Below are positions 9,531 through 64,000 of a stretch of DNA of 64,000 nt, one piece after another; position 1 is the stretch's first letter; every line of letters starts with the position of its first letter. Source of the DNA: Candidatus Kaiserbacteria bacterium (GTDB lineage: Bacteria > Patescibacteriota > Minisyncoccia > Phycocordibacterales > UBA2100); the NCBI GenBank assembly GCA_027083345.1, contig JALWOZ010000008.1, positions 5,006 through 69,005 of the forward strand. The letters are read 5' to 3'. The position numbers were made by a program, and so were the translations under genes. The notes below the pieces were generated by a model, which made no database searches, had not been told where the DNA came from, and saw nothing but the letters and a program-made list of their open reading frames with translations.

Positions 9531-9565
9531 AAAAACATCGCAGTCTGCAGACTGCGATGTTTTTA
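9531..9565. terminator. Bidirectional rho-independent terminator (aaaaaCATCGCAGTCTGCAGACTGCGATGttttt)
   Basis: A perfect palindrome is flanked by an A-run and a T-run, between convergent rpsA (+) and pth (-). Confidence 0.8.
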
Positions 9566-10123
9566 ATTAAACTTATTCATTGCACTATCTACTCCATATT
9601 TAACAATCTCCTCCACTACCCTACTTACTCGATCAAATATATTAGATATCTCTTTGCGCTCTAATATACCAAACTTTTTTAATACAAAGCTACTCACCGC
9701 TCTTGACCCTCTAGGTTTGCGCTGTTTACCTAAAAATACTGGGGTAACACCAATACGCACACGGACAAAGTCTTTAGTACCAATTGCCTTTACTATATCC
9801 TCTACGCCTTTTTGCCCGCCTGAGCCACGTGCCTTACTCACTTTTACATCACCAAAAGGTAGGTCTATGTCATCATGTACGACAATCAAGTATTGAGCAT
9901 TCGCTCTACGCTCTTGCTTATCTTTACCAAGAGCCTTAGCCACCGGCCCACCTGAGAGATTCATATAAGTATCCGGTACTAACACCTCCACATTATCAAA
10001 GGTTTCAAATCGTTTTTTAAACCTTCCTACTATATCTTTACCAATATTATGCCGGGTACCTTCATACTCACTACCGGGATTCCCCAATCCAACTATGAGC
10101 CAATTTATACCATTTAGTATCAT
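9563..10123 (-). CDS. pth: Peptidyl-tRNA hydrolase
   Basis: LIVGLGNPGSEYEGTRHNIG...YMNLSGGPV...VVHDDIDLPFGDVKVSKARGSGGQKGVEDI are Pth family motifs. Confidence 0.85.
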   Translation of the reverse strand: MILNGINWLIVGLGNPGSEYEGTRHNIGKDIVGRFKKRFETFDNVEVLVPDTYMNLSGGPVAKALGKDKQERRANAQYLIVVHDDIDLPFGDVKVSKARGSGGQKGVEDIVKAIGTKDFVRVRIGVTPVFLGKQRKPRGSRAVSSFVLKKFGILERKEISNIFDRVSRVVEEIVKYGVDSAMNKFN

Positions 10124-10196
10124 TATTACAGAATATCACACTAGCACACGCATACAAGTTTGGTGTCAAGCTCAGCTTGTAGTATACTACTCTCTA

Positions 10197-10811
10197 ATGA
10201 CAACTTCTCCACAACAATTTACAATTTCTAACGACTCTGACACTAATAATTCTGCCTCATCAAAGACTAACAAATCCTCTACCTTATCTTTATTAATCAC
10301 AGGATTAATCGTATTAGGGATAGTACTATCTTTAAGATTTTATATAGTTAAGCCGTTTATTGTCAGCGGAGTGTCTATGTACCCAACTTTTAACTCATGG
10401 CACTATCTAATTATAGATGAGTTTACATATAACTTTATGAGAGAACCACAACGAGGTGAGGTTATAGTCTTCCACTATCCTAAAAACACTAAAAGATACT
10501 TTATAAAAAGAGTAATTGGCTTACCCGGAGAGACAGTATCTATACACGGCACAAAAGTCAGCATAAACAATTCAGCACCATTAGATGAACCTTACATCGC
10601 CAAAAACAAAGAGAAGATAGACGACATATCTATAAAATTAGCTAATGATGAATACTTTGTAATGGGCGATAATAGAAAGGAGAGTGCGGACTCTCGTTAC
10701 TGGGGTCCTCTTAAACGCAAATTTATAGTAGGCAGAGTATTAACAAGACTATTCCCCTTCTCTAAACTTGGGTGGCTACCTGGCTCTACCACATACGCAT
10801 TAGAGAGATAA
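10197..10811 (+). CDS. lepB: Signal peptidase I
   Basis: GVSMYPTF (catalytic Ser box), KRVIGLPGETV and GDNRKESADSRYWGP. The start was moved to the internal M (MTTSPQQ) to avoid a 5' extension that overlaps pth. Confidence 0.8.
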   Translation: MTTSPQQFTISNDSDTNNSASSKTNKSSTLSLLITGLIVLGIVLSLRFYIVKPFIVSGVSMYPTFNSWHYLIIDEFTYNFMREPQRGEVIVFHYPKNTKRYFIKRVIGLPGETVSIHGTKVSINNSAPLDEPYIAKNKEKIDDISIKLANDEYFVMGDNRKESADSRYWGPLKRKFIVGRVLTRLFPFSKLGWLPGSTTYALER

Positions 10812-10827
10812 AATAACTCATTTATAA

Positions 10828-11970
10828 ATGTTGAACCTTAAAGACATTACTATACGAAATACTAAAGAATTTATTGAAGAAGCCATAAACGCTGCAGATT
10901 CATTTGGCTTCTCAAACTTAGACAATATTCTAAATAAACTACCTTCAAAAAGATTAAAGGCTGCAAATAAAGTTATACATGCCAATCCAAGAGAGAAAAA
11001 CTTCCTAAAAACAGTCCGTAAATTAGCTACAAAAAATACACAAAAAACTAAAGAACACATATTAGGATACAGCATTAACAAAAATAAAGAGTCTGAGAGT
11101 ACCTTTACCCTAAATGTGGCGGGTACGAATAATCCTATATCTGAGGCTACTATCATAGCTACAGCATATACTCTACTAGATAATATAGGGATACCTGATA
11201 CGACAGTACATATAAACTCTCTCGGTACACATGAGTCTTTTACTAGATACATACGCGACTTAACTAAATACTTAAAAAAGATATCTAAAGATACCCCTCT
11301 ACAAGTCCGTGCAGACCTGGCCATATCTCCTTTAAGGGCATACGCTAGATTATGCAATAACAATAAAGACTTAGCCAAAGGTTGTCCCCAAGCAATAGAC
11401 TACTTAAATGATGATGGTCGCTCGCACCTATGGGGCCTATTAGAGTACCTAGAGGGAGCAAGAATACCTTATGTATTAGACAACACTGTAACAGGTAGCG
11501 GGGACTTTTTTGAACATACAATGTTTGAAATCTGGGACGATAAAAAAGACAACTTAATAGCTTATGGCGGTAGACATAATGTATTAAGCAGAAAAGCTTT
11601 CAATAAAAACATACCGATCACCACACTCTCTATAGATATAAACGGTAATGTAAATAAATTTAAACAAATCAAAGAAGACAAAAATCCAACATTTTACTTT
11701 GCTCAACTAGGTAATAATGCAAAAAAATTAGGATTAAAGGTATTACGAGATCTACACAACGCTGGCATAAAGGTTAAACATACAATAACCCATAAAGAGC
11801 TAACTAAACAAATGAGTAACCCCCTAGCCAAACAAGTACCTTTTGTCATTATTATAGGCCAAAAAGAGGCCTTAACAGATTCTGTAATAGTCCGAGATAC
11901 AGCTACCCATAAACAAAAAGTTGTACCAACTAAACAATTGGTGAGGTACTTGAAAAAGTTACAACGATAA
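10828..11970 (+). CDS. Histidyl-tRNA synthetase-like protein lacking catalytic motif 2 (HisRS paralog / pseudo-synthetase) with intact anticodon-binding domain
   Basis: Aligns by eye to HisRS. LNVAGTN occupies the place of LRPEGTA, HINSLG is present, PLRAYARL matches NPLRVLD, GGRHN replaces GGRYD, and the C-terminal HGPT-type anticodon-binding domain is kept (FYFAQLGNN...VPFVIIIGQKE). The ~60-aa motif-2 segment (FRYERPQ.GR) is absent. Confidence 0.55.
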   Translation: MLNLKDITIRNTKEFIEEAINAADSFGFSNLDNILNKLPSKRLKAANKVIHANPREKNFLKTVRKLATKNTQKTKEHILGYSINKNKESESTFTLNVAGTNNPISEATIIATAYTLLDNIGIPDTTVHINSLGTHESFTRYIRDLTKYLKKISKDTPLQVRADLAISPLRAYARLCNNNKDLAKGCPQAIDYLNDDGRSHLWGLLEYLEGARIPYVLDNTVTGSGDFFEHTMFEIWDDKKDNLIAYGGRHNVLSRKAFNKNIPITTLSIDINGNVNKFKQIKEDKNPTFYFAQLGNNAKKLGLKVLRDLHNAGIKVKHTITHKELTKQMSNPLAKQVPFVIIIGQKEALTDSVIVRDTATHKQKVVPTKQLVRYLKKLQR

Positions 11971-11987
11971 GGTAGTATACACACCAT

Positions 11988-12245
11988 ATGACATTAAATG
12001 TAAAAATAGAAAAAGATGGATCTAAGAGCACAGCTCGCATATTAAGTGAGTTTTCTAGAGCTATGTTTGGCACAGGTATAGTGCGCCACTTAAAAATGAA
12101 CAAGCGCTACTTCTCTCGTAATGTATCAGCTCTACAAAAAAAGCAAGCAAAATTGCGTAAGATGGAGAAAGTAGCTAAACTTGAGCAAGACATTAAAGAT
12201 GGCAAAGTACTTATTAACTCTCAAGGCAGAGTAATAAAACGATAA
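11988..12245 (+). CDS. rpsU: 30S ribosomal protein S21 (probable)
   Basis: 85-aa basic protein whose pattern (V.V..KDG....A.R.FSR....GI.....NKRYF...S..QKK.AKLRK) resembles the bS21 family. Confidence 0.5.
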   Translation: MTLNVKIEKDGSKSTARILSEFSRAMFGTGIVRHLKMNKRYFSRNVSALQKKQAKLRKMEKVAKLEQDIKDGKVLINSQGRVIKR

Positions 12246-12274: not shown

Positions 12275-12655
12275 ATGGTTAGCTGTGTTATACGAAAGAC
12301 AATCCACAAAAGGCACCCGTCGGTGCCTTTTGTGGATATTGCCGATAACATCTTACCTAAAAAATATGAACTCTCTGTAGTTTTAATAGGAGACAATCTG
12401 GGTAAAAAATTAAATAAAAAATATAAAAATCGCAATTACCCAACCAATGTACTCTCTTTCCCCTTAGATAGCGACAATGGTGAGCTTTTCTTAAATATAA
12501 GAAAAGCTGAGAGAGAAGCTAGTAAATTCAACCACAGTAAAAATAAGCATATTATTTACTTATTTATACACGGATGTTTACATTTGGCAGGTTACGAGCA
12601 TGGCAGTATAATGGAGAAACTAGAGCAAAAGTATCTAAAACAATTTATAAAATGA
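12275..12655 (+). CDS. ybeY: rRNA maturation endoribonuclease YbeY
   Basis: HGCLHLAGYEH metal-binding motif near the C-terminus; size ~126 aa. Confidence 0.8.
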   Translation: MVSCVIRKTIHKRHPSVPFVDIADNILPKKYELSVVLIGDNLGKKLNKKYKNRNYPTNVLSFPLDSDNGELFLNIRKAEREASKFNHSKNKHIIYLFIHGCLHLAGYEHGSIMEKLEQKYLKQFIK

Positions 12656-13803
12656 ACAAGAACATAATAACAGGTATAGACTTAGGTACGAATACAATTA
12701 AAATCGTAGTGTCTGAGTTAGATGACAATAACTCAATAAAGATACTTGGAGTTGGTACAAGCAAAGCTGAGGGCTTACGCAATGGTTATATAGTAGACAT
12801 GCCATCTACAGTTAAGAGTATAAGCAGAGCTTTAGACAACGTAGTTAAAAACTCCAGACTCCGCCCTGACAAAGCATATCTATCTATAGGAGGCATAAGC
12901 CTCTCTGGGTTAAATGCAAATGGTACAGCTTACATACGACATAGCGACTCTATTATCACCGAACAAGACTTTAATAACTCTCTCTCTGACGCATCTAAAA
13001 AATTAGCCAATAAACTCACAAATAAAAAAATAATACATGATATACCAATAAAAACCTCAATAGACGACGAAGTGGCTTTGTGTAATCCAATAGGCATGCA
13101 GGGCTCTAAACTAGAGAGTAAGGTATTAATAGTAAACGCTTTAGAGAGTCATATAGATGACTTTGTATCAGCAGTGGAGGACACGGGAGTAGAGGTTGTA
13201 GATGTTACAGCAGCACCTTTAGCGGCTAGCTTCTCCTCTATAACTACACCTCAAAAGATGCAAGGTTGCATGTTATTAGACATAGGTGCTGAGAGTACAG
13301 ATATAATAATCTTTGAAAATAATATGCCTATATTCTTAAAAGTCTTACCTATAGGCTCTAACGATATAACCAATGCCTTAGCAATAGGATTAAAGGTCTC
13401 AATAGAGGAAGCTGAACAAATTAAGAAAGGTTCTCTTGTAGGCACCAAATATACAGAAACCACTATAAACAAGATAATATCCAAAAGTTTAACTAATCTT
13501 TTTCAAGAAATTAAATCTATACTCAGAGAGCTGGACAACAATACCATGCTACCATCTGGTATTTTAATAACAGGTGGAGGATCTAGACTTAATAATATAG
13601 AGGACTTAATTAAAACCAATCTAAAATTACCTACAAAAGTAGTATATGCTGACGAAAAGCAAATCGTAGGCAATCCTGAGTTTACAGTATCATATGGATT
13701 ATGTATCTGGGGAGCTAACAGTGAGAACGCTAGTACAACTATCCAAAAAATGAAAGCATATATGCTAAAAATTGTAACCTGGTTCAAACAATTCTTACCC
13801 TAA
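12652..13803 (+). CDS. ftsA: Cell division protein FtsA (actin-like ATPase)
   Basis: GIDLGTNTIKIVVSEL (phosphate-1), EGLRNGYIVDMPSTVKSISRALDNV, LDIGAESTDIIIF and ILITGGGSRLNNIEDLIKTNLKLPTKV. The start at the internal MNKNII overlaps the ybeY stop by 4 nt. Confidence 0.65.
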   Translation: MNKNIITGIDLGTNTIKIVVSELDDNNSIKILGVGTSKAEGLRNGYIVDMPSTVKSISRALDNVVKNSRLRPDKAYLSIGGISLSGLNANGTAYIRHSDSIITEQDFNNSLSDASKKLANKLTNKKIIHDIPIKTSIDDEVALCNPIGMQGSKLESKVLIVNALESHIDDFVSAVEDTGVEVVDVTAAPLAASFSSITTPQKMQGCMLLDIGAESTDIIIFENNMPIFLKVLPIGSNDITNALAIGLKVSIEEAEQIKKGSLVGTKYTETTINKIISKSLTNLFQEIKSILRELDNNTMLPSGILITGGGSRLNNIEDLIKTNLKLPTKVVYADEKQIVGNPEFTVSYGLCIWGANSENASTTIQKMKAYMLKIVTWFKQFLP

Positions 13804-25997: not shown

Positions 25998-26069
25998 GGT
26001 CCTATAGTATAATGGTTAGTACATCGCCCTCTCACGGCGGAGATCGGGGTTCGACTCCCCGTAGGATCA
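25998..26069 (+). tRNA. tRNA-Glu (anticodon CUC)
   Basis: Folded by hand. Acceptor GGTCCTA/TAGGATC (one G-U), D-arm with GG loop, anticodon stem TCGCC/GGCGG with loop CT-CTC-AC, 4-nt variable region, T-arm CGGGG-TTCGACT-CCCCG, discriminator A, no encoded CCA. Confidence 0.8.
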
Positions 26070-27756
26070 CATCAAGGGATTTTTGTCCCATATACTCATC
26101 AGATAGCCTGAAAATAGGCGACATTTTTGGTGTTCCATTAAGTATTTCTTGGTATGTTGGTGTTTCTTCAAATACAAGACCAAATAATGCCTGTTGAGTA
26201 CCTAAATCGTCATTATTTATAAGCATTTCTACTGGGTGTTCCATTAGATGTTTTGCATATCGTACAAATGCCTTTATTTTCTTCTCACTAACCTCAATAG
26301 TATTGCGTTGTGTCTCTGCCAATAGTATATCTTTTTCTAGTTGGTCTATTTCTTCCTCTTTCTTTTTTCTAACAACAGCACTCTCTATCATATCAAGTGC
26401 TTGAAGTTTTACCGCTTGTTGACTTTTTAGGTCTGCAACATTTCTATTTATTTGTGATGCTTCTTGCACTATGTCTTTTTCTCGTGCTCTATATCTTTTA
26501 AGGAGTACATACTCTAATGAGTTTGCAAAGTCATCTTCAAACTTCATATTTTCAACAAAGTGCTTTATATTTTTCTCAAACTCTTCTTTTGGTATACGAT
26601 TGTATTTATGTGCTCTCTTGCCAGTTTTATAACCCCCACAGTGGTATGCTGGGTGCTTTTTGCCAAGTTTACCTCTTGAAGCACTTCCCAATAATGGCTT
26701 TTTGCACTCTTGGCATAATAAAAACTTGAATGGATAATCTGGATTATTTTTATTACGTTGCTTCTGCCACGGAGAATAGTCTTTGAGTATTTTTATAGAA
26801 CCATCTTCATTCTCTTGTATAAAAACCTTTCCGTGGTTTGCTTTATTAAATAGTTCAATGGAAACTAAGCCGTCATATTGAGTACGTATAGGCTTATTGT
26901 GTGTCCATCTTTCAGTACGAATGCCAGCATAGATGGTTCTTTGTATGTATCTTTGCAGTTGCTTTACTGTAAGTTTATTCCCACCAACACTTCCGATTAT
27001 ATGCATTTTATCTTTACTCCATCTATTCATCTTAGGTGTTCTGAAACCCATTGCATTTAGTTTCTTAACAATCTCTTTATCTGGGACACCTCGTGCACGC
27101 AACTCAAACATTTTTATAAAATAATGTGCCCTGTCTGGGCTTGGAACTGCAATAAATCTCTTCTTTCCGTTAATAAGTACCTTTTTATTAGCATATCCAT
27201 CGTTTGCTCTGCGTACCGTATAACCGTCTTGTATAGTTCTTATTGAAGCACCAACCATTCTAGTTAAAATACCAGATACGTCATCTTCTGCCCTTTGTGC
27301 CTCCATAAGTTGTGCACTTGCAGTGGCAGAATGCTTACTCCAAGAGTACTCAAATCCTAAATCACCAAGTGTATTTATTTCAGGTTGTATTATTCCATAC
27401 GTGTCTACCAGTTCTACACCCAAACTTCTAAGACTGTCTTTCATACTTTGATAAGTAACAGCACCGTCTCTTGTAATCCTATCTATACTTTTTATTAAAT
27501 AATAGTGTACTTGTATACCTTTTGATTTTAACTCTTTTATGTATGTAAGTATCTGCTTAAAATCCTCTCTTTCTTCTGCACGTCCAGAATATACCTTACT
27601 AAATATATTAAGTGTATTCCATTTTTTTGCATCAGCATAACTTGTACACATCATCTTTTGCTCGTCTAAACCACCACCAGTGAGTTGTTTCTGGGAACTA
27701 ATCCTACAGTCTATTATGCAGTTTTTTTGCTCTTCTGGTTTTTTTAGAGTATTCAT
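26032..27756 (-). CDS. Large serine recombinase (phage-type serine integrase)
   Basis: N-terminal resolvase domain (CRISSQKQ with catalytic Ser; DRITRD), recombinase domain, Cys-rich zinc ribbon (CQECKKPL...YHCGGY) and a C-terminal coiled-coil. The last ~12 codons overlap the 3' end of the tRNA-Glu. Confidence 0.85.
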   Translation of the reverse strand: MNTLKKPEEQKNCIIDCRISSQKQLTGGGLDEQKMMCTSYADAKKWNTLNIFSKVYSGRAEEREDFKQILTYIKELKSKGIQVHYYLIKSIDRITRDGAVTYQSMKDSLRSLGVELVDTYGIIQPEINTLGDLGFEYSWSKHSATASAQLMEAQRAEDDVSGILTRMVGASIRTIQDGYTVRRANDGYANKKVLINGKKRFIAVPSPDRAHYFIKMFELRARGVPDKEIVKKLNAMGFRTPKMNRWSKDKMHIIGSVGGNKLTVKQLQRYIQRTIYAGIRTERWTHNKPIRTQYDGLVSIELFNKANHGKVFIQENEDGSIKILKDYSPWQKQRNKNNPDYPFKFLLCQECKKPLLGSASRGKLGKKHPAYHCGGYKTGKRAHKYNRIPKEEFEKNIKHFVENMKFEDDFANSLEYVLLKRYRAREKDIVQEASQINRNVADLKSQQAVKLQALDMIESAVVRKKKEEEIDQLEKDILLAETQRNTIEVSEKKIKAFVRYAKHLMEHPVEMLINNDDLGTQQALFGLVFEETPTYQEILNGTPKMSPIFRLSDEYMGQKSLDVILRGVEPRSPP

Positions 27757-32028: not shown

Positions 32029-33285
32029 ATGAGTACATCTGGATTTGTTAAAGATAGAGAAATACTTGAAGAAACTCACAAGGTTGAGGATTTGTTGCAC
32101 TTCACTGACGAGATAATGCGACTTAAAGAGACAATAGACCGTATTCCATATTCAGCACTTATTGGATACATTGGCAAGTTTGGAACAGGTAAAAGTACGG
32201 CTATATATCAGTTAAGAAAAGCATACGAAGATGTTAGATGGTTTGAGTTTGATGCGTGGAAATATCCAGACAGAAAGGATTTATGGGAGGGTTTTGTACT
32301 AGATATTGCAGACCAACTTGGCGATAAGAAAAAGACCACAGGAAAGATAGATGGAAAAACTAGCACTAGTAAAACAGTCCGTGCAATAGCACAGATAGCA
32401 CAGTTTGCAGGAGTGGCGACAGGTCTTTCTTTTATAGCGGAGAAGTTTAGTTATTTGTTTGAGGGACAGCGAATAGAGCGAGTTTTTGAAATACAGGGAC
32501 TATTAAATGATATGTTATCTACCGTTACAGAAGATGAGATTTTTATTGTTGTTGAAGACATAGACCGTTCAGGTGATGCAGGTAAATACTTTTTGGAGAC
32601 ACTAAAACAGTTTGTTAAAAATAATACTTCTAAAAAGAGAATAGTTGTTATTGTGCCAATAGGAGAAGAAGTCTACGAGCAAGACATAGATTTACAAGCA
32701 TCTTACTATAAGTCATTAGACCATATACTGTATTTTGAACCTAAGAACACTGACTATTCTGGGTTTATAGATATGGTTTTTGATGAAAGTGTATTTCCAA
32801 AAGATTTTCAAAGCCAACCAAATGTTGCTGTTGAAGCAATATGGAAAGTACACCTTGAGGAATGGTTTCAACTTGCATCTGGCTCTTTAACAATACGTGA
32901 GATAAAGGCGACTATAAGAGAAGCAAATATCCATTACCGTAGATTGTACGCAGACGGTTATGAGCCTGACCCACGTATTATGTTAGCACTTACACTTTTG
33001 ACCAAGATTAAAACAGATGGAGGGAAACGTTGGATTTCAAAAATAAATACAAACAATCCTATACAAGGAAGTTGTCCTATTTATCCTTATTTACAGTCAG
33101 TTGCCAAAAATATGACACTAAACCAAACTTCTCAAAAGGGGTACGTACTTATGGATACTAAGTTTATTCAAGATAAGAGGTATACAATACCAGTTATAAA
33201 TAATGCCATTGGTATTTCAGAAAAAGATGTATCTTATATATTGTCAGATTTTTATCTAATACCATTTGGTATTATTCAAAGGTAA
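32029..33285 (+). CDS. KAP-family P-loop NTPase
   Basis: Walker A LIGYIGKFGTGKST. It is followed by FEFDAWKYPDRKDLWEGFVLDIADQL, the KAP-family signature (F.AW.Y.....LW..ll..i). Walker B-like IFIVVEDIDR. Confidence 0.6.
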   Translation: MSTSGFVKDREILEETHKVEDLLHFTDEIMRLKETIDRIPYSALIGYIGKFGTGKSTAIYQLRKAYEDVRWFEFDAWKYPDRKDLWEGFVLDIADQLGDKKKTTGKIDGKTSTSKTVRAIAQIAQFAGVATGLSFIAEKFSYLFEGQRIERVFEIQGLLNDMLSTVTEDEIFIVVEDIDRSGDAGKYFLETLKQFVKNNTSKKRIVVIVPIGEEVYEQDIDLQASYYKSLDHILYFEPKNTDYSGFIDMVFDESVFPKDFQSQPNVAVEAIWKVHLEEWFQLASGSLTIREIKATIREANIHYRRLYADGYEPDPRIMLALTLLTKIKTDGGKRWISKINTNNPIQGSCPIYPYLQSVAKNMTLNQTSQKGYVLMDTKFIQDKRYTIPVINNAIGISEKDVSYILSDFYLIPFGIIQR

Positions 33286-33474: not shown

Positions 33475-34185
33475 TCACAAATTGAAGTAATTCCACAAGA
33501 TGGCGTCTAGGTGGAGTGGTGGAATTTGTAACTCTTTTGCTATTTTGTTATAGAACTCTCTAACTTCTGTGATATTTTTTAAGCCTTTTGGCGCTAATTT
33601 AATAAGTCTGGAGTCAATGGGTGCTGATAACTCAAACGGATATTGTATAAATTTGCCATAAACTACTCTACCGGCATAGCCAAACATCTTGATGGCGAAG
33701 AGTATCGTCTTGTCTGTCACTCTCTGCCTCATTACGCTTGCCAAGCTCTCGGCTAGGCTGAGCATATCATTATAATACTCCCTCGCTTGCCCTCGCTCTA
33801 TGAACTCTGCATAAAACTCGCGGAGCTTCTCTACTCTCTTGAGTTTAACCTCTACTAGCCTCTTATTGCACACTGAGTTGGGTAAAAAAGCACTAAAGAA
33901 GGCAACAACATCGCCAAAAGAAGCTACAGTAGGCAACTCCTCAGCAACACACTCTGCAAACTCTTCCCAATAGTCCTCACCCTTGCCAGAGAGCTGATAG
34001 CACACTAGAGCATTAGTAATAACTAAAAACAAATAACTCTCCACCGCCAACCTGCCACTCACACCCAACCAAAGACTCCTTAACGCCAAAAACTGTCTAT
34101 CATTGCTCTCTGTTTTTAACACTTGTGTAAATGTAATGTCGTGCAAATTATATTGCTTAATAAATTCTCCATAATCCATAAACAT
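33475..34185 (-). CDS. AGOG-like N-glycosylase/DNA lyase (tentative)
   Basis: DRQFLALRSLWLGVSGRL...GEDYWEEF... and KTILFAIKMFGYA resemble the archaeal 8-oxoG glycosylase (AGOG) family as I remember it. GC is visibly higher than in the core genes. Confidence 0.4.
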   Translation of the reverse strand: MFMDYGEFIKQYNLHDITFTQVLKTESNDRQFLALRSLWLGVSGRLAVESYLFLVITNALVCYQLSGKGEDYWEEFAECVAEELPTVASFGDVVAFFSAFLPNSVCNKRLVEVKLKRVEKLREFYAEFIERGQAREYYNDMLSLAESLASVMRQRVTDKTILFAIKMFGYAGRVVYGKFIQYPFELSAPIDSRLIKLAPKGLKNITEVREFYNKIAKELQIPPLHLDAILWNYFNL

Positions 34186-41797: not shown

Positions 41798-44749
41798 TTA
41801 GAATCCGGAGATACCGGCGAAGGGGTCTGTTGGTTGTATCGGATTCTGTGGCTCTTTCTTTTTATATCTCTCTTGTATCTCTGCCTCTACCTCCTCTCTC
41901 GGTCTACCATATTTATTATATGACTCTTGTTTCAACTCCTCTATATGAGAGTAATCGGGTTCGTCGACTACAGGGAAAGTGATTATATCAAACGGAGCTG
42001 TCGGAGAGCCCCCAACGAGCATTTTTAAGTAAGCATTCCTATTCGGTAAACCTGTAATATCTCCAGCATTAAACTCAGGTTGAAACTCTTTCTCCAAAAA
42101 CTCTGCATCCTCTTGAGAGACCCTAAAGATGCATTTAGTACCGACATTACCAAATACAGCATCTCGTATTTCATCACTAAGTTGCTTTATGTATTGGTGG
42201 GCTAAATTAAGACTTAAAGCATATTTACGAGCCTCAGAGAGTATTGTAGCGATACTAGGTGTTGTAAAATTTTGGAATTCGTCTATATATAAGTAGAAGG
42301 GGTGCCTTTCTTCTTCAGGTAGATCTACCCTTGCAAGAGCAGACTGGAGTATCTTACTTACAAATATAAGTCCTAAAAGCTCTGCATTAATATCTCCAAT
42401 ACGACCCTTAGAGAGATTGACGAGTAATATTTTCTTATTGTTCATTATGTCAGATATACTAAAGGCACTCTTAGACTGAGCGATAATAGGACGCATTATC
42501 TCATTACCCATAAAGAGGTCTGTCTTAGCAGTGATATATGGCACTATATTCTCTAAGCTTGCTTCACCGCCCGCCTTCTCTGCTATCTCCTCCCAGAATT
42601 GGTTTACAACAGGGTTTTGACTGCGGGCTAAACAACTATGGCGAAATTCCTTATCAGAGAGCACTCTGGAGATATCTCCTATCGTAGCCGTACCATGCTC
42701 CATGCCCTCAAGTACCAACATAGCAGAGTTACGGAAGTATTGCTCAAACATAGGCCCCATACTCTCGGGACTCTTCTTGCCAAATATCTGCATGAAAATC
42801 TGGAAGAGCTCATTAACTACAAAAGTCTTTTCTTTTGGATCGTCCTTATTAAACTCCATAAAATTAAGACCCATAGGCATATCTGTATAACCAGGATCAA
42901 AATATATTACATCATTATGTCTATTTTCTGGCACGCTAGCTAATACATCCATAATATCTGAACCGTGCGGATCTATATAACAACAACCCTCTCCATTATT
43001 AATATCTTGTATTATCATCTGCTTCATCAAGAATGTTTTACCTGTACCGGTCTGGCCTATCTCATAAAAATGCCTCATCCTATCTATGCTACCAAATTTA
43101 ACTATGGTCTCATTAACCCCAAACTTATTCTTACCTAAGACTATGCCTTCTGTGTCTCCTACATCTATAGGAGCTGGTTTGTGTTTTGCCTTGTTTTGTT
43201 TTAACTCACGACTCGTTGATACAGCCTGCCCAGTTAAGTGATACATAGTTGTGAGCTCCTCTATAGATAAAGGGATTTGTTGTGAAGATGCAAAAATTCT
43301 CATAATAAATCCTCTCAGAGATTTGTTCAATTTAGCTCCTTTTAATCGCTTCCATACTATTACATTGCCTTGCCCTTTATCAAACTGATTAAATGTACTT
43401 GTTATATCCTCAAGAATCTCAACAGCACGAGGCCTAGTTGAGGCACTGGCAACTGCACGCACCGTTACGGGCACAACTCTTTTTGAGGATTTCTCAGTTA
43501 TAAGGTCTAGAGTTATCTGGTCTACAACATTAGACTGGGCATCCTCCCCTCTAGGAGACCTTATTGTATTTTTAAAATCAACCCATACCTTACTCCACAC
43601 TCCTCTATTCTTAGCTATGGCATCCTCGACGGTGTCTCCTTTGCGGATAGCATCTATTATTTTTTTATATTTTTTATTTATACTTGTCCCCTTATTGCCT
43701 ATGACAAATTGTAAAGATGCTCCTTCTCCATGTTTCTGCAATTTAGAAAAGGCAGACAAAATCACATTCAAAGGATCATGTGTAAACTCTTTATAAACTT
43801 TAAGCGGATATATCTCATCTCTACCCAACTGCGCCTCAGCACAAGCATCTTCTCCAGAGTTATTAAAGATATTATAATCATTACGTTGCTCCTCTATAAC
43901 AGCGTCAGGGAATATAGACAAAAAATGCTTCTCAAACATACCTTTTTTAGTTACTGGAACCGATACATAGAAAATAGCCTCCTCACTCCCCTCACTGACG
44001 GCTACCTCCACAGTAAATACTTTATTATTCTTCTTAGCTAATCCAAGAAAGTCCTTCCCCCCGTCGGTAGTAGTTAACAACCCTAGATACAATTGCTCCA
44101 TTGCGCCTAATAACTTCTCTAGCTCTTGTGCCTTATCACTCTCCTCTTTACTCTTAGGGGAGGAGACAGACACCTTGTACAATGTCATATGTAATGCTTG
44201 CCATATTTCCCCCGTATGTCGCAAATCTTTAACAGGCATACCCTCTTGTACATATTGAGCTAATATTCTATGTAAGTCATCCTCTATATGGTGATTACCT
44301 ATCTTTTTAGCCACTATTAAGGCATTCTTAATTCCCCTATCACGTGCTAAAGCCAACAGCTCATCTATTTGCCTATCATGCTCCTCTTGCTCTAAGCCTA
44401 TAGCCACTCCGGCCGACTCGTACTCCCCCATGGCATAATCATCTTGCAACACATTTTGCACAGGCTCTACTGAGTAGTCTTTGATAACTCTTTTATGTGC
44501 TCTGTCTGACTCAAACTTATTACCACCTAAATCTAAATTATCTGGATGGGCTTGCAATTTCTCTTGGTGAGCCACCTTAGCCCTGAGATACTCCAACTCC
44601 TCTTGAGGGGAACTGAACCTATTGTCTACCGAATCTTTCTTTATGTTCACCTGCCCAGAGGCCGAATCCCTAACCTTTTTATTAGTATGCTCAGGTGGCG
44701 TAACAGTCTCATTTAGTATTATTGGTTCTTGTGCAATCTCCTTAGACAT
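41798..44749 (-). CDS. TraD/TraG/VirD4-like P-loop ATPase (type IV secretion coupling-protein family) with large N-terminal domain
   Basis: Walker A YEIGQTGTGKTFLM; LYIDEFQNFTTPSIATILSEARKYALSLNLAHQYIKQL (DE Walker B plus RK..QS..QL) as in TraD/VirD4-type ATPases; 983 aa. Confidence 0.5.
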   Translation of the reverse strand: MSKEIAQEPIILNETVTPPEHTNKKVRDSASGQVNIKKDSVDNRFSSPQEELEYLRAKVAHQEKLQAHPDNLDLGGNKFESDRAHKRVIKDYSVEPVQNVLQDDYAMGEYESAGVAIGLEQEEHDRQIDELLALARDRGIKNALIVAKKIGNHHIEDDLHRILAQYVQEGMPVKDLRHTGEIWQALHMTLYKVSVSSPKSKEESDKAQELEKLLGAMEQLYLGLLTTTDGGKDFLGLAKKNNKVFTVEVAVSEGSEEAIFYVSVPVTKKGMFEKHFLSIFPDAVIEEQRNDYNIFNNSGEDACAEAQLGRDEIYPLKVYKEFTHDPLNVILSAFSKLQKHGEGASLQFVIGNKGTSINKKYKKIIDAIRKGDTVEDAIAKNRGVWSKVWVDFKNTIRSPRGEDAQSNVVDQITLDLITEKSSKRVVPVTVRAVASASTRPRAVEILEDITSTFNQFDKGQGNVIVWKRLKGAKLNKSLRGFIMRIFASSQQIPLSIEELTTMYHLTGQAVSTSRELKQNKAKHKPAPIDVGDTEGIVLGKNKFGVNETIVKFGSIDRMRHFYEIGQTGTGKTFLMKQMIIQDINNGEGCCYIDPHGSDIMDVLASVPENRHNDVIYFDPGYTDMPMGLNFMEFNKDDPKEKTFVVNELFQIFMQIFGKKSPESMGPMFEQYFRNSAMLVLEGMEHGTATIGDISRVLSDKEFRHSCLARSQNPVVNQFWEEIAEKAGGEASLENIVPYITAKTDLFMGNEIMRPIIAQSKSAFSISDIMNNKKILLVNLSKGRIGDINAELLGLIFVSKILQSALARVDLPEEERHPFYLYIDEFQNFTTPSIATILSEARKYALSLNLAHQYIKQLSDEIRDAVFGNVGTKCIFRVSQEDAEFLEKEFQPEFNAGDITGLPNRNAYLKMLVGGSPTAPFDIITFPVVDEPDYSHIEELKQESYNKYGRPREEVEAEIQERYKKKEPQNPIQPTDPFAGISGF

Positions 44750-47547: not shown

Positions 47548-48795
47548 ATGTTACAAAAAATAAAAAAGAGAGTAGCATCTATAGATGTAGAGACTATTTA
47601 TTTAGCTAAGGGAGGTTTTTGGCTTATGATGGCCAAAAGCTCTAGTGCTTTAAGCTCTTTAATCGTTACTATTGTATTAACAAACTTACTCCCTAAAGAA
47701 GAGTTCGGGCAATACACTTTTATATTATCCGTGGTAGCCATAATCACCATCTTCACGTTACCGGGTATGGGTACTGCTATCATCCGTTATAAAGCATTGA
47801 GTCATGACTTAAACTTACAAAAAATAGCTAAGTCTAAAATATTGTATGGACTACTAGGTTCCGTCGTTAGTCTACTCGGTGCTTTTTATTATTATTTACA
47901 TGACAACAATCTAACCCTCACTTATGCATTTATCATTACAGCAATATTCATCCCTCTATATGAGGCATTTTTTATATACTCTTTTTATTATAAAGGATGC
48001 AAAAACTTCAAAACTCCAGCCATATACGAATCCATTTCTAAGGTGGCACAAGCAATAATAATGCTGACAACAATTCTATTAACGAAGTCTATCCTAGCAC
48101 TTCTGTTCTCCTTCTTTTTGGGTATAACCATAACAAGATTATTCTTTTATAAAAAGATGATTAAGTCAACATACGCGAGACACGATGATAACTCTAGTAT
48201 AGAAGTAATCAAATATGGTAAGTACCTCACCCTTATAGCTATATTTGGGATTATATTAGCTAATTTAGATAAGTTATTGCTTTGGCACTACTTTGGCGCA
48301 GAGTCTACGGCAATATATGCCATTGCCATATTAATACCAACTACTCTATCAATACCTATAGAATTACTTGCCCAAGTTTTATTTCCTAAATTATCTAATC
48401 TCAAACTATACAATAAGGCAACTTTACACAAAACTCTAAAAGAGATGCTCAAATTATCTAGTTTGTCATTGTTAATACCGATATTTTATATACCTACTGC
48501 ACCACTATTTTTTAAACTATTATTCCCCTCATATACTGAGAGTATCTTACAAACTCAGATCATGGCGTTGCTCGTACCCTTGCTTGTATTAAATGCCTTC
48601 ATGTGGAATTTATTATTAGCACAAAAAAAGACAAGATACATGCCATCTATTTTAATCATTGGCATAATTATACAACTGTTGACTTTCTTTATCTTTAAAG
48701 ATTATCTAGATACTTTTGTTATCTACCTTATGATCGGCGTATACAACATTGCAATAATATCATCCTCATACTTAGCCATGAGGTACGCAGAGTAA
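47548..48795 (+). CDS. Polysaccharide/oligosaccharide flippase (Wzx / MOP superfamily)
   Basis: ~12 TM helices across 415 aa; sits at the head of the glycosyltransferase cluster. Confidence 0.5.
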   Translation: MLQKIKKRVASIDVETIYLAKGGFWLMMAKSSSALSSLIVTIVLTNLLPKEEFGQYTFILSVVAIITIFTLPGMGTAIIRYKALSHDLNLQKIAKSKILYGLLGSVVSLLGAFYYYLHDNNLTLTYAFIITAIFIPLYEAFFIYSFYYKGCKNFKTPAIYESISKVAQAIIMLTTILLTKSILALLFSFFLGITITRLFFYKKMIKSTYARHDDNSSIEVIKYGKYLTLIAIFGIILANLDKLLLWHYFGAESTAIYAIAILIPTTLSIPIELLAQVLFPKLSNLKLYNKATLHKTLKEMLKLSSLSLLIPIFYIPTAPLFFKLLFPSYTESILQTQIMALLVPLLVLNAFMWNLLLAQKKTRYMPSILIIGIIIQLLTFFIFKDYLDTFVIYLMIGVYNIAIISSSYLAMRYAE

Positions 48796-49632
48796 GTCTG
48801 CTTGTGCACTCTTTATTAATAATTCTTTTATAAAACTTTCTTTATTGTCTATTAGACATCTAGATCTTGCATCAAGAATATTATATCCCAAATCAGTTAT
48901 CATTTGTAATAAACTTAGACTACTGCCCGGTACTTGACCTTCATATAAGACAGGGGAAAATTCAAATATAATAATTGGCATATCTCTTTTTATAATTTCT
49001 TGAGCTCCTTTAAACACTTCCACCTCGAATCCTTCTGTATCTATTTTTATTAAATCAACTTTCTCTTTTATAAACTCAAAATCTAATGTACTCACATTAA
49101 TGTCAATCGACTCATAACTATCATTATGCAATTTGATACTTGAAGCTCCTATATTACCTCTAACTAGATTAATTTTTGCTATTGCATTTTGAGCACCACA
49201 GGCCTTATTCCTAATCTCTATATTCTCAATATTATTGCGTTCTATACTTAAAGAAAATTGCTTATGTAAAAAATCAATAGGCTCAAAAGACACTACCTTC
49301 TCACATAATCTTGAAGCATATAAAGAGAAAAATCCTATATTAGCTCCAACATCAACAAAGACAGATTCTGAGGTAAGGTGCTCCTTTAAGAGCCTCAATA
49401 TATGCTCGTCCCAAGTGCCGTTTGTGTATATAAAGTCATCTACTAACCCGTTCTTATGTGAGAGCAGTATATCAAATTCTATACCATCAATGTTAATCTT
49501 CTTAAAACCCTCACTATACCCAATCTCCTCCGGTTTAACATTAAAATATTTAATAAACCTAAATATACTAATAACAAATCGTGATACAGGTACTGGCAAC
49601 AATAATAGTATCTTTATATATACATCTTTCAT
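48772..49632 (-). CDS. FkbM-family methyltransferase
   Basis: FVDVGANIGFFSLYAS (SAM-binding motif of the FkbM family). Confidence 0.65.
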   Translation of the reverse strand: MKDVYIKILLLLPVPVSRFVISIFRFIKYFNVKPEEIGYSEGFKKINIDGIEFDILLSHKNGLVDDFIYTNGTWDEHILRLLKEHLTSESVFVDVGANIGFFSLYASRLCEKVVSFEPIDFLHKQFSLSIERNNIENIEIRNKACGAQNAIAKINLVRGNIGASSIKLHNDSYESIDINVSTLDFEFIKEKVDLIKIDTEGFEVEVFKGAQEIIKRDMPIIIFEFSPVLYEGQVPGSSLSLLQMITDLGYNILDARSRCLIDNKESFIKELLIKSAQADLLCVPHG

Positions 49633-49653
49633 TCAGAGTAGTATACTTAAGAT

Positions 49654-50346
49654 ATGCAAAAGATACCAGAGACTATACATTATTGTTGGTTCGGCAAACA
49701 ACAAAAACCAAAAATATTCTTAAAGTGCCTGGCATCTTGGAACAAATACTGCCCACATTATAAGATCATAGAATGGAATGAGAGCAACTTTGACGTAAAT
49801 GCACACTCCTATACAAAAAAAGCATACAATGAGGGAAGGTGGGCCTTTGTCTCTGATTATGCAAGGATTAAAATCTTAAATACATATGGAGGCATATATT
49901 TAGATACCGATGTGGAACTTATAAAACCTGTAGATCCACTACTCTTAAGCGCCACTTTTTTAGGATTTGAAACTAAAACAATAGTAAACACAGCCATAGT
50001 AGGTGCTATAAAAGATAATGCTTTCTTAAAAGATATCTTACAAATATATGACAATCTTACAGAATTTGAGACTATACCAAATATAGTAACCAGAGTATTA
50101 AATACTTATGGATTAAAAGAATATAAAAAACAGATAATTAATAATGTATCTATTTATCCAACAGAATACTTCTACCCCACCCCATTTGGAGAAAGATTCT
50201 CAAAAGACAAAATTACCAAAAATACTTATACTATACATTGGTGGGATTACTCATGGGGCTCAACCACTTCCAGACTATTTAATAAATTGGGTATACTAAA
50301 CACTAGTATACAATTTAAAAAATATATCAAACATTTAATAAAATGA
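49654..50346 (+). CDS. Glycosyltransferase, GT32-like (DXD sugar-binding region)
   Basis: IHYCWFGKQQKP... and FVSDYARIKILNTYGGIYLDTDVEL match the Gly_transf_sug / OCH1-like pattern. Confidence 0.65.
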   Translation: MQKIPETIHYCWFGKQQKPKIFLKCLASWNKYCPHYKIIEWNESNFDVNAHSYTKKAYNEGRWAFVSDYARIKILNTYGGIYLDTDVELIKPVDPLLLSATFLGFETKTIVNTAIVGAIKDNAFLKDILQIYDNLTEFETIPNIVTRVLNTYGLKEYKKQIINNVSIYPTEYFYPTPFGERFSKDKITKNTYTIHWWDYSWGSTTSRLFNKLGILNTSIQFKKYIKHLIK

Positions 50347-51188
50347 GTAGAGAAAGCATAAAATTTAGTATAATCACGCCAACTTATAATAGGCTCGAGC
50401 TTATAAAACAAAGTATTGACTCTGTATTAGCGCAAACCTACTCAAACTGGGAGATGATTATCGTAGATGATAGCACTGATAATAAATTATATAATTCAGA
50501 TTGGATTAAAAATCTGGACGAAAGAATCATATATTTGAAAAATAAGCAAAATATGGGAGCCAATTATTCTCGCAATAGGGCGCTAGACAATATAAGCGGT
50601 GAATTTGTGATATTACTAGACGATGATGACAAACTAGACCCTAACTGCCTAAAACATGCATATGAGACCATATTAAAAAATAACAACTACTCTTGGTATT
50701 TATCTAACAAAATATATGAAGATGGAAAGTGTGTTACCTATGTAGAAAAATATGGCAGAGCTTATGCATATGTTTTAGATTACTTACTAGGTAGTAAGAT
50801 AGCAGGAGACCATACAGCGTGTATAAGAGCTAACTCTATAAAGAATATAAGATTCCCACATGACGTGAAAAATGGAGGAGAATGGGAATTTTTTGCTAAA
50901 TTAGGCAATAAGTATAAAATCTTTACTTACGACTTCCCCTCCACAACCGTGAGATATTTGGAAGATGGTCTAAGTAAGAATCTAAATACGAGCATCTTTC
51001 TACTCAAAACTAAACTGAGAATGCTCAAATTATTACCCAAAATAGAACCTAAAACCCCAATGCTATTTTTATACATAACCACTATATTATCTGTACCCCC
51101 TATAATATATCTATATGACTTAACAAAAAAGATACTGCACAAAACAAAGTTACTCCTACCTCTTAAAAAACTTCTTACCAGTAGATAA
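50343..51188 (+). CDS. Glycosyltransferase family 2
   Basis: FSIITPTYNR...IIVDDSTDN...LLDDDD. Confidence 0.75.
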   Translation: MSRESIKFSIITPTYNRLELIKQSIDSVLAQTYSNWEMIIVDDSTDNKLYNSDWIKNLDERIIYLKNKQNMGANYSRNRALDNISGEFVILLDDDDKLDPNCLKHAYETILKNNNYSWYLSNKIYEDGKCVTYVEKYGRAYAYVLDYLLGSKIAGDHTACIRANSIKNIRFPHDVKNGGEWEFFAKLGNKYKIFTYDFPSTTVRYLEDGLSKNLNTSIFLLKTKLRMLKLLPKIEPKTPMLFLYITTILSVPPIIYLYDLTKKILHKTKLLLPLKKLLTSR

Positions 51189-54530: not shown

Positions 54531-54542
54531 ATATTGTTAAGG

Positions 54543-58162: not shown

Positions 58163-58202
58163 AATTTTTCTTTAATTTTAATTAATCTTAATACTTTAAT
58201 AA

Positions 58203-58805: not shown

Positions 58806-58832
58806 AATCTGTTTTTAATTATCTCCCCACTT

Positions 58833-63980: not shown

Positions 63981-64000
63981 TGTTATTGTAGCAACTGTTT

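Follow-up and report, generated by a model that had tools for sequence, protein, structure and literature searches.

Histidyl-tRNA synthetase (HisRS) counts as a universal and essential enzyme, and no indirect pathway to His-tRNA-His is known to us. A gene of a Candidatus Kaiserbacteria bacterium, whose product resembles a HisRS with a degenerate catalytic domain, raises the question of what job such a protein performs at present, and of what loads histidine in these tiny-genome bacteria. The analysed stretch (hereafter the window) comprises 64,000 nt, positions 5,006–69,005 of the forward strand of contig JALWOZ010000008.1 (assembly GCA_027083345.1). The gene, recognised from the list of open reading frames (ORFs) and from its homology to HisRS, occupies 10828..11970 (+) including the stop codon and encodes 380 aa in an intact frame. 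The source scaffold carries an identical protein call, and the identical protein is also present in independent assemblies.

The initial annotation described the product as a HisRS homolog and quoted the strings HINSLG, SPLRAYARL, GGRHN and LNVAGTN, all of which are present in the ORF. The homology was borne out by several kinds of comparison. Residues 92–377 matched the HisRS structure 1qe0 in the PDB (E = 2.6e-20), profile alignment with canonical Patescibacteria HisRS by hhalign gave a probability of 100% (E = 3e-61), and the top Foldseek matches of the predicted structure were bacterial HisRS (E ~ 1e-21). The NCBIfam hisS model (TIGR00442) was matched by 21/21 members of the family, with a best E-value of 7.6e-41; the window protein itself scored 128.6 bits over model positions 126–405 only, which is below the equivalog cut-off of 286.75 bits, and the Pfam tRNA-synt_His model gave 15.1 bits, short of its cut-off of 25. 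The AlphaFold2 (AF2) model has a confident HisRS-like fold (pLDDT 89, pTM 0.90), in which the hairpin of motif 2 is shortened and its loop is gone. The fold and the order of domains are thus those of canonical HisRS (class IIa; TIGR00442; PDB 1qe0, 4e51 and 1adj/4rdx), although the protein is about 45 residues shorter and has deletions of the motif 2 loop and of the ordering-loop/LRPEGTA segment.

The helical insertion domain (residues 134–212, 11227..11463 (+), IDYLNDDGRSHLWGLLEYLE, containing SPLRAYARL), delimited by full-length alignment to canonical sequences, is specific to HisRS and well conserved in the family of the window protein, with R140, R143, L175, P187, L193 and R198 invariant. 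The HisB motif GGRHN (residues 247–251, 11566..11580 (+)) corresponds in the alignments to GGRYD, as had been proposed, and retains its arginine; 45/46 degenerate sequences have R287, as do 148/150 of the best representatives of clusters formed at 50% identity, and 38/46 degenerate sequences have Y288. The C-terminal part is an anticodon-binding domain of the HGTP type (residues 288–378, 11689..11961 (+)), matched by Pfam PF03129 over residues 295–377 (E = 2.8e-12). This is the best conserved domain of the degenerate clade, with a mean pairwise identity of 0.49 compared with 0.33–0.45 for the other domains. In Thermus thermophilus HisRS, E388, K397 and Q404 recognise the bases of the GUG anticodon through specific contacts (PMC4357726). 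Their equivalents, mapped through the 1adj alignment, are E347, R356 and Q363, all contained in the segment QKEALTDSVIVRDTATHKQ (residues 345–363, 11860..11916 (+)). Among the degenerate loci E347 is conserved in 45/45, R356 (as R or K) in 45/45 and Q363 in 43/45, and each of the three positions is conserved in 149/150 of the best representatives, again allowing R or K at R356. The glutamate, the lysine or arginine, the glutamine and the HisB Arg/Tyr pair are therefore features that the degenerate form shares with canonical HisRS.

The retention of this domain bears directly on a possible identity as HisZ, the regulatory subunit of ATP phosphoribosyltransferase. HisZ is bacterial, derived from HisRS and devoid of aminoacylation activity, among the HisRS-like proteins of bacteria it is the one known to be catalytically inactive and the only one that reviews on such proteins name, and the NCBI pipeline calls some members of the present family 'ATP phosphoribosyltransferase regulatory subunit'. 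The hisZ model (TIGR00443) does find the window protein, at 19.6 bits, and the best E-value in the family is 1e-9 to 1e-10. However, this score stands far below both the hisZ cut-off (271.65 bits) and the score of the hisS model, so that the comparison of profiles clearly favours HisRS even though neither model reaches its cut-off. HisZ is typically without a functional anticodon-binding domain, and here, unlike in HisZ, that domain is strongly matched and its reading residues are conserved, as the initial annotation had anticipated. There were no HisZ structures among the top 50 fold matches, and no homolog of hisG, hisD, hisB, hisH, hisA, hisF or hisI was found at E ≤ 0.01 in the window and 90 related loci (1.36 Mb). 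HisZ is, moreover, a true paralog that exists alongside HisRS and works with HisG in histidine biosynthesis, whereas the gene described here replaces hisS in a slot amid translation and cell-division genes. On the scores, the domain content, the locus and the lack of his genes nearby, the HisZ identity was rejected as very improbable.

The catalytic domain presents a different picture. The motif 1 region (residues 12–30, 10861..10917 (+)) is still recognisable as a helix (residues 12–25 in the AF2 model) followed by the 'SFGFS' strand, and hhalign pairs 'ElleRAixvAxSFGFS' with 'vxxxaxxxAxxYGFxxIxTP' of canonical HisRS, but the invariant motif 1 proline (P44) is absent from the window protein and unaligned in all degenerate forms. 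In place of the TDIVxKEMY...LRPEGTA segment stands a Lys/Arg-rich loop without regular structure, LPSKRLKAANKVIHANPREKNF (residues 38–59, 10939..11004 (+)), which the AF2 model shows as coil with a pLDDT of about 80. Here 14–16 residues are deleted, seen as a 16-column gap in the MAFFT alignment and a 14-column gap in hhalign. MAFFT deletes LRPEGTA altogether, while hhalign leaves at most 'NPREKNF' (residues 53–59) beside its gap, which is possibly a remnant of the motif; on that reading T85 would be lost and E83 could survive as E56. In canonical enzymes this LRPEGTA/ordering loop, with E83 and T85, binds histidine. Glu64 of T. thermophilus HisRS is essential for the binding of A76 (PMC4357726), and its equivalent appears to fall within the deleted stretch.

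The loss of the motif 2 loop, the central claim of the initial annotation, was upheld. The segment FRxERPQxGRYR with R113, E115 and R121 is deleted in the MAFFT, hmmalign and hhalign alignments, none of which restores a loop. What is left, HILGYSINKNKESESTFTLNVAG (residues 78–98, 11059..11121 (+)), consists in the AF2 model of the two flanking strands (78–84 and 91–98) linked by a 6-residue turn. The accompanying claim that LRPEGTA had been replaced by LNVAGTN was mistaken: the comparison with 1qe0, MAFFT and hhalign all place LNVAGTN on the second and last strand of motif 2, where it pairs with LGCEVFG of the Escherichia coli enzyme. In functional HisRS, motif 2 with its loop (fRxE...GR; R113, E115 and R121) binds ATP, A76 and G-1.

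Further losses extend the earlier list. HisA, RGLDYY in canonical enzymes, has become GSGDFF within the remnant 'TGSGDFF' (residues 222–228, 11491..11511 (+)), so that the catalytic R259 is replaced by Gly223 and the histidine-binding tyrosines Y263 and Y264 by Phe227 and Phe228. In motif 3, where alignment to GFAMGLER identifies 'TLSIDINGN' (residues 266–274, 11623..11649 (+)), the G-x-G-x-G-x-E-R pattern is gone and the ATP-binding R311 is replaced by Gly273. E131 is replaced by Asn, and to these must be added the unalignable proline of motif 1. In comparison with canonical HisRS the window protein is thus without R113, R259 and R311, and E83/T85 are absent or ambiguous. The ThrRS encoded in the same window has a normal catalytic core (152 bits), which indicates that the degeneration is specific to HisRS. 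Judged against the established enzymology of HisRS, neither the formation of histidyl-adenylate nor tRNA charging would be possible for such a protein by the canonical mechanism, and the likely inactivity suggested by the initial annotation is supported, since the residues used for canonical activation and transfer of histidine are absent.

The window protein is not an isolated case. Of 79 species-level Patescibacteria loci, 45 carry the degenerate form, under Kaiser-, Campbell-, Zambryski- and Taylorbacteria labels, and it also occurs in the best 150 cluster representatives. The canonical forms provide a sharp contrast: the key residues are kept in 34/34 canonical Patescibacteria loci, where three positions vary conservatively between E and D, and in 119/119 canonical database matches, with minor variation at two positions; R311 is present in all of both sets. 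In the degenerate loci R259 is missing in 45/45, and the position is occupied by Gly in 42/46 degenerate sequences; among the best representatives it is missing in 148/150. R311 aligns to an arginine in only 1/46 degenerate sequences, and R113, R259 and R311 occur together in 0/150 of the best representatives. E83/T85 and the glutamates binding A76 are almost always missing. An intermediate subclade (loci L025, L026, L034, L036 and L038) keeps part of motif 2 and E131 but has already lost R259 and R311, which speaks for a decay in steps.

Such widespread erosion, together with the long branches of the degenerate forms, might be taken for a decaying pseudogene or for an artefact of annotation or assembly. 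Nevertheless, 45 species-level genomes and at least 150 clusters (50% identity) have an uninterrupted frame of consistent length (median 397 aa among 150), the predicted structure is confident, and the recurrence of the identical protein in independent assemblies speaks against an artefact. The dN/dS of the degenerate gene is 0.046 at a dS of 0.66, compared with 0.016–0.046 for canonical pairs. Purifying selection on the gene is strong (dN/dS about 0.05), and this, with the distribution, rules out a pseudogene, to which we assign practically no chance. The maintenance of a non-catalytic gene across many reduced genomes calls for a strong selective reason.

The chromosomal neighbourhood reveals where the gene came from. 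Upstream lie pth, encoding peptidyl-tRNA hydrolase (9563..10123 (-); identified by Pfam on the source scaffold and by synteny), and, immediately adjacent, lepB, encoding signal peptidase I (10197..10811 (+)), a link common to canonical hisS and the degenerate gene. Directly downstream is a gene for a small basic, S21-like protein (11988..12245 (+)), so called from a weak Ribosomal_S21 match of the syntenic gene at locus L006, followed by ybeY (12275..12655 (+)) and ftsA (12652..13803 (+)), both identified from the source scaffold and by synteny. The slot pth(-)-lepB-[gene]-ybeY-ftsA is filled by either canonical hisS or the degenerate gene in nearly all 79 loci. In a neighbour-joining tree the degenerate forms make up a single clade with long branches, nested inside canonical Paceibacteria HisRS. 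The shared slot and the nested single clade show that the degenerate gene is, by position, the ortholog of hisS, and that a single degeneration took place, in the ancestor of a large clade. The proposal of a tRNA-His-binding regulatory paralog therefore stands only in part: a non-catalytic, tRNA-His-binding protein is the best reading of the conserved residues, but a paralog it is not. A canonical hisS at locus L054 was considered as a displacing copy and rejected, as it lies in a secDF-recJ-relA-hisS arrangement with no tie to the degenerate clade.

If the ortholog of hisS has lost its catalytic residues, another source of histidylated tRNA has to be sought. Since the proteins of these cells contain histidine (e.g., the His motif of YbeY), some functional HisRS activity must be present, and a functional HisRS is expected to be encoded elsewhere in the genomes. 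A six-frame HMM scan of the 64-kb window found no second HisRS, the only other match being the anticodon-binding domain of ThrRS; the 79 related loci with their flanks likewise gave none, each having exactly one HisRS-like ORF. Neither the window nor the related-locus sequences contained a tRNA-His gene.

The lack of a second HisRS in these sequences lends some weight to the view that the degenerate protein is itself the sole route to His-tRNA-His, either as an anticodon-reading subunit working with a catalytic partner or with a re-invented active site. The partner would be a HisRS-like protein reduced to the catalytic domain, or an unrelated protein, encoded elsewhere and possibly forming a heterodimer. 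In all examined genomes of the clade the degenerate gene sits at the hisS locus, no other HisRS lies in the window or flanking the related loci, the gene is constrained as strongly as a real HisRS, its anticodon readers are intact, and small genomes rarely keep redundant genes. For the complete Campbellbacteria chromosome CP011215, the depositors named the degenerate protein its histidyl-tRNA synthetase. Against a sole route speaks the catalytic domain, in which no sequence unites R113, R259 and R311, and in which E83/T85 and the glutamates that bind A76 are nearly always gone; no class II synthetase is known to us to work without the arginines of motifs 2 and 3. Nor has a new set of residues taken over. 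Apart from the glycine at position 259, almost every position conserved at 85% or more across the degenerate clade is inherited, being structural or part of the anticodon domain, and no new polar residue of the catalytic domain is conserved across the whole clade. The former active-site pocket has acquired forms that are conserved within subclades (e.g., H131/N262/H263/Y-R-Y-S-R of the Zambryski type), where a ligand could still be bound, and these forms differ from subclade to subclade, which fits poorly with one conserved chemistry. Finally, the conserved neighbourhood holds no candidate partner. We therefore regard the sole-route explanation as unlikely, and a highly divergent synthetase, the other option of the initial annotation, is unlikely as well. 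It is likewise doubtful that these genomes encode no HisRS homolog besides the degenerate protein and that His-tRNA-His arises by an undescribed route, which might involve an unrecognised catalytic partner using the degenerate protein as a tRNA-His adaptor, or charging that depends on a host.

A parallel comes from eukaryotes. Gcn2's HisRS-like domain (PDB 9c9q/9c9r and 8t7t), which binds uncharged tRNA, likewise combines the folds of the catalytic and the anticodon-binding domains, and the model of the window protein matched 9c9r and 8t7t at E ~ 1e-13. The Gcn2 domain is a proven pseudo-enzyme in which HisB is kept, the HisA arginine and tyrosine hydroxyls are lost, and the side chains that decode the anticodon have disappeared (PMC11363354). 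HisB is similarly kept in the window protein, HisA reads INEAFF in Gcn2 and GSGDFF here, and both proteins have lost the side chains that bind ATP and histidine. There are, however, clear differences: the Gcn2 domain is part of a multidomain eIF2-alpha kinase and retains its motif 2 loop for regulation, whereas the Patescibacteria protein stands alone, has this loop deleted and keeps its anticodon readers. With its nesting among Paceibacteria HisRS, the bacterial form has, to judge from the sequences, an independent origin, and the likeness to Gcn2 is convergent. Other class II folds that have lost aminoacylation and are kept for binding or regulatory roles, namely SLIMP (SerRS-like, of insect mitochondria) and the accessory subunit of DNA polymerase gamma (GlyRS/ProRS-like), are eukaryotic, derive from other synthetases and represent extra paralogs rather than the decay of an ortholog at its own locus. 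A search of the literature yielded no description of a HisRS anomaly in CPR, Patescibacteria or Parcubacteria, nor of such a HisRS pseudo-enzyme in bacteria.

The parallel invites the suggestion that the protein is a general sensor of uncharged tRNA, with a Gcn2-like function, or an RNA-binding factor without specificity for tRNA-His. The matching changes in the catalytic domain, as well as the new Lys/Arg-rich loop in the ordering-loop region (residues 38–57), agree with it. No effector domain is fused to the protein, however, and its near-invariant readers, which Gcn2 has lost, point to specificity for GUG, so we give a general role little credence.

We favour, with a probability of roughly 0.6, the reading that in a subclade of Paceibacteria/Parcubacteria the positional ortholog of hisS has turned into a pseudo-synthetase that binds tRNA-His. 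The ancestor of the clade would have lost the HisA arginine R259 (replaced by Gly), the arginine of motif 3 and the LRPEGTA/ordering-loop segment, and the motif 2 loop would have been deleted later, in most descendants including the organism of the window. These losses would remove the residues for ATP, histidine, the tRNA 3' end (A76) and G-1. Selection would meanwhile have kept the scaffold of the class II core, the HisB 'GGRY' motif, the helical insertion domain and, most of all, the anticodon-binding domain, including the three side chains predicted to read G34-U35-G36. The most likely activity is then that the protein binds tRNA-His specifically, via the anticodon arm and without catalysis. 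Downstream of such binding, the pseudo-synthetase might act as a sensor, a chaperone, a sequestering factor or a non-catalytic partner of the enzyme that charges tRNA-His. Weighing against this reading are the finding of a single HisRS-like gene in the window and at each related locus, since a sole copy would argue for some activity, the naming of the protein as the histidyl-tRNA synthetase of CP011215, the pocket forms conserved within subclades, and the demand for a strong selective reason.

The hisS ortholog of a large and diverse clade has thus lost the canonical catalytic residues and yet shows conservation at the level of a synthetase, with its anticodon readers kept. This has practical consequences, as hisS belongs to standard sets of bacterial marker genes such as bac120 of GTDB. 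The names given to the degenerate proteins in databases conflict (HisRS, HisZ, 'hypothetical', 'C-terminal domain-containing'), and because of this inconsistency metabolic reconstructions may over- or under-call an essential function. If a second HisRS exists in these genomes, the protein would be a bacterial counterpart of the HisRS-like pseudo-enzyme of Gcn2, the ortholog of a displaced essential enzyme kept for a non-catalytic, tRNA-specific job, and a pointer to a new function linked to tRNA-His in organisms with minimal regulatory repertoires. If there is no second HisRS, the account of how histidine enters translation would need extending, and, should the degenerate gene truly be the sole copy, these bacteria would become the first case of a free-standing bacterial lineage that has no canonical synthetase for an amino acid with no known route of indirect charging.

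The gene at 10828..11970 (+) is an intact open reading frame for a 380-aa protein, and its translation contains all the strings quoted in the initial annotation (HINSLG, SPLRAYARL, GGRHN, LNVAGTN). The C-terminal anticodon-binding domain proposed there gives a clear Pfam match (HGTP, residues 295-377, E=2.8e-12). The Pfam model of the HisRS catalytic domain reaches 15.1 bits, below its cut-off of 25, and the NCBIfam hisS equivalog model (cut-off 286.75 bits) gives 128.6 bits, with only its positions 126-405 covered. The closest solved structure by sequence is S. aureus HisRS (1qe0, E=2.6e-20), with the alignment starting at query residue 92. The AlphaFold2 model of the protein is confident (pLDDT 89.4, pTM 0.90); bacterial HisRS structures lead its fold matches (E~1e-21), the HisRS-like pseudo-enzyme domain of Gcn2 ranks lower (E~1e-13), and the top 50 include no HisZ structure. 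NCBI gives a HisZ-type name to some members of the family, but identity with HisZ, the regulatory subunit of ATP phosphoribosyltransferase, was rejected: the hisZ model scores 19.6 versus 271.65 bits, domain content and locus are also contrary, and histidine biosynthesis genes are absent from the 1.36 Mb of window and related loci surveyed.

Three independent alignments, namely MAFFT with E. coli HisRS, hmmalign to a purpose-built canonical profile, and hhalign of the family alignment against canonical Patescibacteria HisRS (probability 100%, E=3e-61, 364 columns), agree on the main anatomy. The motif 1 region corresponds to the N-terminal helix and the 'SFGFS' strand of the protein. Approximately 14-16 residues of the TDIVxKEMY/LRPEGTA segment are absent; LRPEGTA is deleted according to MAFFT, and hhalign leaves a possible remnant, 'NPREKNF', at residues 53-59. 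LNVAGTN, previously taken as the replacement of LRPEGTA, corresponds instead to the second motif 2 strand (LGCEVFG in E. coli). The reported deletion of the motif 2 segment was confirmed, as the FRxERPQxGRYR loop is missing in all three alignments, shrunk to a short turn joining two strands. In E. coli numbering, hmmalign shows the deletion of R113, E115 and R121 and the changes of E131 to Asn, R259 to Gly223, Y263/Y264 to Phe227/Phe228, and the motif 3 residue R311 to Gly273. GGRHN matches the HisB position and is indeed altered relative to GGRYD, with G286 and R287 retained. In the T. thermophilus HisRS-tRNA structure, Glu64 and Glu114 contact A76 and are absolutely essential, and the acceptor-end/G-1 pocket is shaped by the Arg115/Arg122 pair and Gly72'/Gly73' (PMC4357726). 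By our reading of the alignments, the equivalents of all these residues would fall within the deleted segments. Without R259 and the arginines of motifs 2 and 3, the protein should, on established HisRS and class II enzymology, be incapable of forming histidyl-adenylate.

In the protein search, some 20 close relatives (378-392 aa) ranked first, and after two distant, short ones came canonical HisRS at 28-31% identity. The family profile gave 767 matches at E<=1e-30 among 1.84 billion cluster representatives, and the best 150 of them scored 258-596 bits, nearly all being 375-430 aa long. With one genome scanned for each GTDB species, 79 loci were found, all in Patescibacteria, with labels including Kaiser-, Campbell-, Zambryski-, Taylor-, Moranbacteria and Paceibacterota, and with the complete chromosomes CP011215.1 (752,630 bp) and OZ253947.1 (644,490 bp) among them. 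Their scores with the canonical HisRS profile are sharply bimodal: 34 of the 79 cover the profile fully and reach 462-552 bits; the other 45 lack the N-terminal third and reach 84-227 bits. All 20 key positions are retained in 34/34 canonical loci, with conservative E/D variation at three, and R113, R259 and R311 are kept in 119/119 canonical Patescibacteria HisRS listed from a separate search. None of the 46 degenerate sequences, from 45 loci and the window, has Arg at position 259, where 42 have Gly; a single one (L050) has Arg aligned at R311, three retain E83 and none T85, and the motif 1 Pro is in no case aligned. None of the 150 top representatives combines R113, R259 and R311, and R259 is absent in 148. 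One subclade (L025, L026, L034, L036, L038) has kept much of motif 2 and E131, with R259 and R311 already gone, suggesting that the loss of catalysis preceded the decay of the remaining active-site residues. A Zambryskibacteria-type subclade (L037, L039, L040, L044, L046, L049, L050, L052, L057, L059-L061, L069, L070, L075, L079, L081, L087, L089) possesses its own strongly conserved set of residues in the former active site, H131, N262, H263 and Y-R-Y-S-R replacing G-R-Y-D, a pattern that points tentatively to a remodelled pocket, perhaps one that binds a ligand. At another pth-lepB locus (L090, 3287-4564), the 425-aa full-length HisRS P0031 has degenerate motifs without large deletions (LRPE to VRWA, RGLDYY to SPLPYQ, GxER to DLKA) and may mark an early stage of this decay, or an independent one.

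The initial annotation considered a paralog of HisRS, a view that the genomic context does not bear out. The gene order S1 - pth(-) - lepB - X - S21 - ybeY - ftsA is common to the window gene and the distant short relatives, and the nearest canonical HisRS genes likewise lie directly after lepB. In tblastn searches, nearly all 79 loci have lepB next to the gene (within ~300 nt of the ORF as delimited here) and ybeY and ftsA downstream of it, whichever HisRS form they carry. By neighbour joining, the degenerate forms group as a single, long-branched clade inside canonical Paceibacteria HisRS, sister to the canonical protein of L035. Judged from sequence and gene order, the degenerate gene is a hisS ortholog. 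The decay is specific to HisRS, since the catalytic core of the window ThrRS, also of class IIa, is normal (152 bits). The lepB-hisS arrangement is not universal among Patescibacteria-labelled genomes, as L054 carries a canonical hisS (9614-10897) in another context, secD-secF-recJ-relA/spoT-hisS-radical SAM/MiaB-like.

The sole degenerate pair with unsaturated dS, L072 and L063 (the latter on CP011215.1), gave a dN/dS of 0.046 (dS 0.66), and canonical HisRS pairs gave 0.016-0.046. A decaying pseudogene is excluded by dN/dS together with the distribution of the family. Within the degenerate clade, conservation is highest in the anticodon-binding domain (mean pairwise identity 0.49; insertion domain, 0.33; residual N-terminal catalytic part, 0.35), and on this pattern of conservation the tRNA-reading end is the part maintained by selection. 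T. thermophilus E388, K397 and Q404 make base-specific contacts to G34, U35 and G36 (PMC4357726), and through the 1adj alignment they correspond to E347, R356 and Q363 of the window protein. These readers are conserved in the degenerate loci (E 45/45, R/K 45/45, Q 43/45) and in the top representatives (149/150 for each), so that a sensor binding tRNAs non-specifically is disfavoured. Positions at least 85% conserved in the degenerate clade are inherited structural or anticodon-domain ones plus Gly259, with no new polar residue of the catalytic domain among them. A tRNA-Val(GAC)/tRNA-Ser(CGA)/tRNA-Glu(TTC) group, in some cases tRNA-Val only, recurs ~4-9 kb downstream of the degenerate gene, past ftsA-ftsZ (L018, L021, L026, L034, L036, L037, L039, L040, L044, L049, L050, L052, L069, L070, L079, L087, L089); no tRNA-His gene was found in any locus fetched.

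Histidine is in use in these organisms, for example in the adjacent YbeY, whose HGxLHLxGYxH motif is intact, hence His-tRNA-His must be made. Neither the 64-kb window nor the flanking sequence of the 79 related loci, a small fraction of each genome, yielded a second HisRS. The degenerate protein of CP011215, AKM84236.1, was named 'histidyl-tRNA synthetase' by the depositors, which is how they read it and no proof of a sole copy. We consider unlikely a scenario in which these genomes have no other HisRS homolog and the degenerate protein participates in charging by an unconventional route.

Elsewhere in the window, a 574-aa large serine recombinase gene (26032-27756, -) overlaps at its end tRNA-Glu(CTC) (25998-26070, +) and is followed, past several ORFs without Pfam matches, by a KAP-family NTPase (32029-33285); the region from 25998 to ~33300 may be a mobile element integrated at the tRNA gene. 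An AGOG-family (archaeal-type) 8-oxoguanine DNA glycosylase (33475-34185, -; Pfam E=4e-49) is encoded in this bacterial genome, as is a 983-aa, type IV secretion-like protein (41798-44749, -) in which coupling-protein domains of the TrwB/TraG type match weakly. A polysaccharide biosynthesis cluster of low GC (~0.32; 47548-55331) comprises a flippase, several glycosyltransferases, an FkbM methyltransferase, a sugar transferase and BacA. G+C rises to 0.44 at 58000-64000 versus ~0.35 elsewhere; this part, which may be a foreign or surface-protein region, holds a 1715-aa ORF (58833-63980, -), just after a cohesin-domain protein (57368-58162, -).

No description of the degenerate family was found in the literature searched. 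A 2022 review lists HisZ as the sole HisRS-like paralog, and a 2016 survey goes no further on this point than recording HisRS as 'missing' from 9% of genomes when a strict motif criterion was applied. Members are inconsistently named in public databases, as 'hypothetical protein', 'ATP phosphoribosyltransferase regulatory subunit', 'His/Gly/Thr/Pro-type tRNA ligase C-terminal domain-containing protein' and 'histidyl-tRNA synthetase'; the 90%-identity cluster of AKM84236.1, one member of which is reported on a 1,443,026-bp contig, includes all but the third. The most economical reading of the sequences is a pseudo-synthetase that would use the retained HisRS scaffold to bind tRNA-His specifically through the anticodon arm, possibly with help from the insertion domain and from a new loop rich in Lys and Arg (residues 38-57), and would no longer hold ATP, histidine, A76 or G-1. 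Sensing or buffering of tRNA-His, or a role as non-catalytic partner of the charging enzyme, appear the most plausible uses. The Gcn2 domain keeps HisB GGRYD and has HisA RGLDYY changed to INEAFF, with the Arg and Tyr hydroxyls lost (PMC11363354), and the Patescibacteria protein, with GSGDFF at HisA, shares this catalytic-domain signature. Unlike the Gcn2 domain, it is standalone, has lost the motif 2 loop and retains the anticodon-specific side chains. On this reading, the protein belongs with aaRS-derived pseudo-enzymes, an already known kind; what is unusual is that the degenerated ortholog sits at the hisS locus itself, throughout a large clade.
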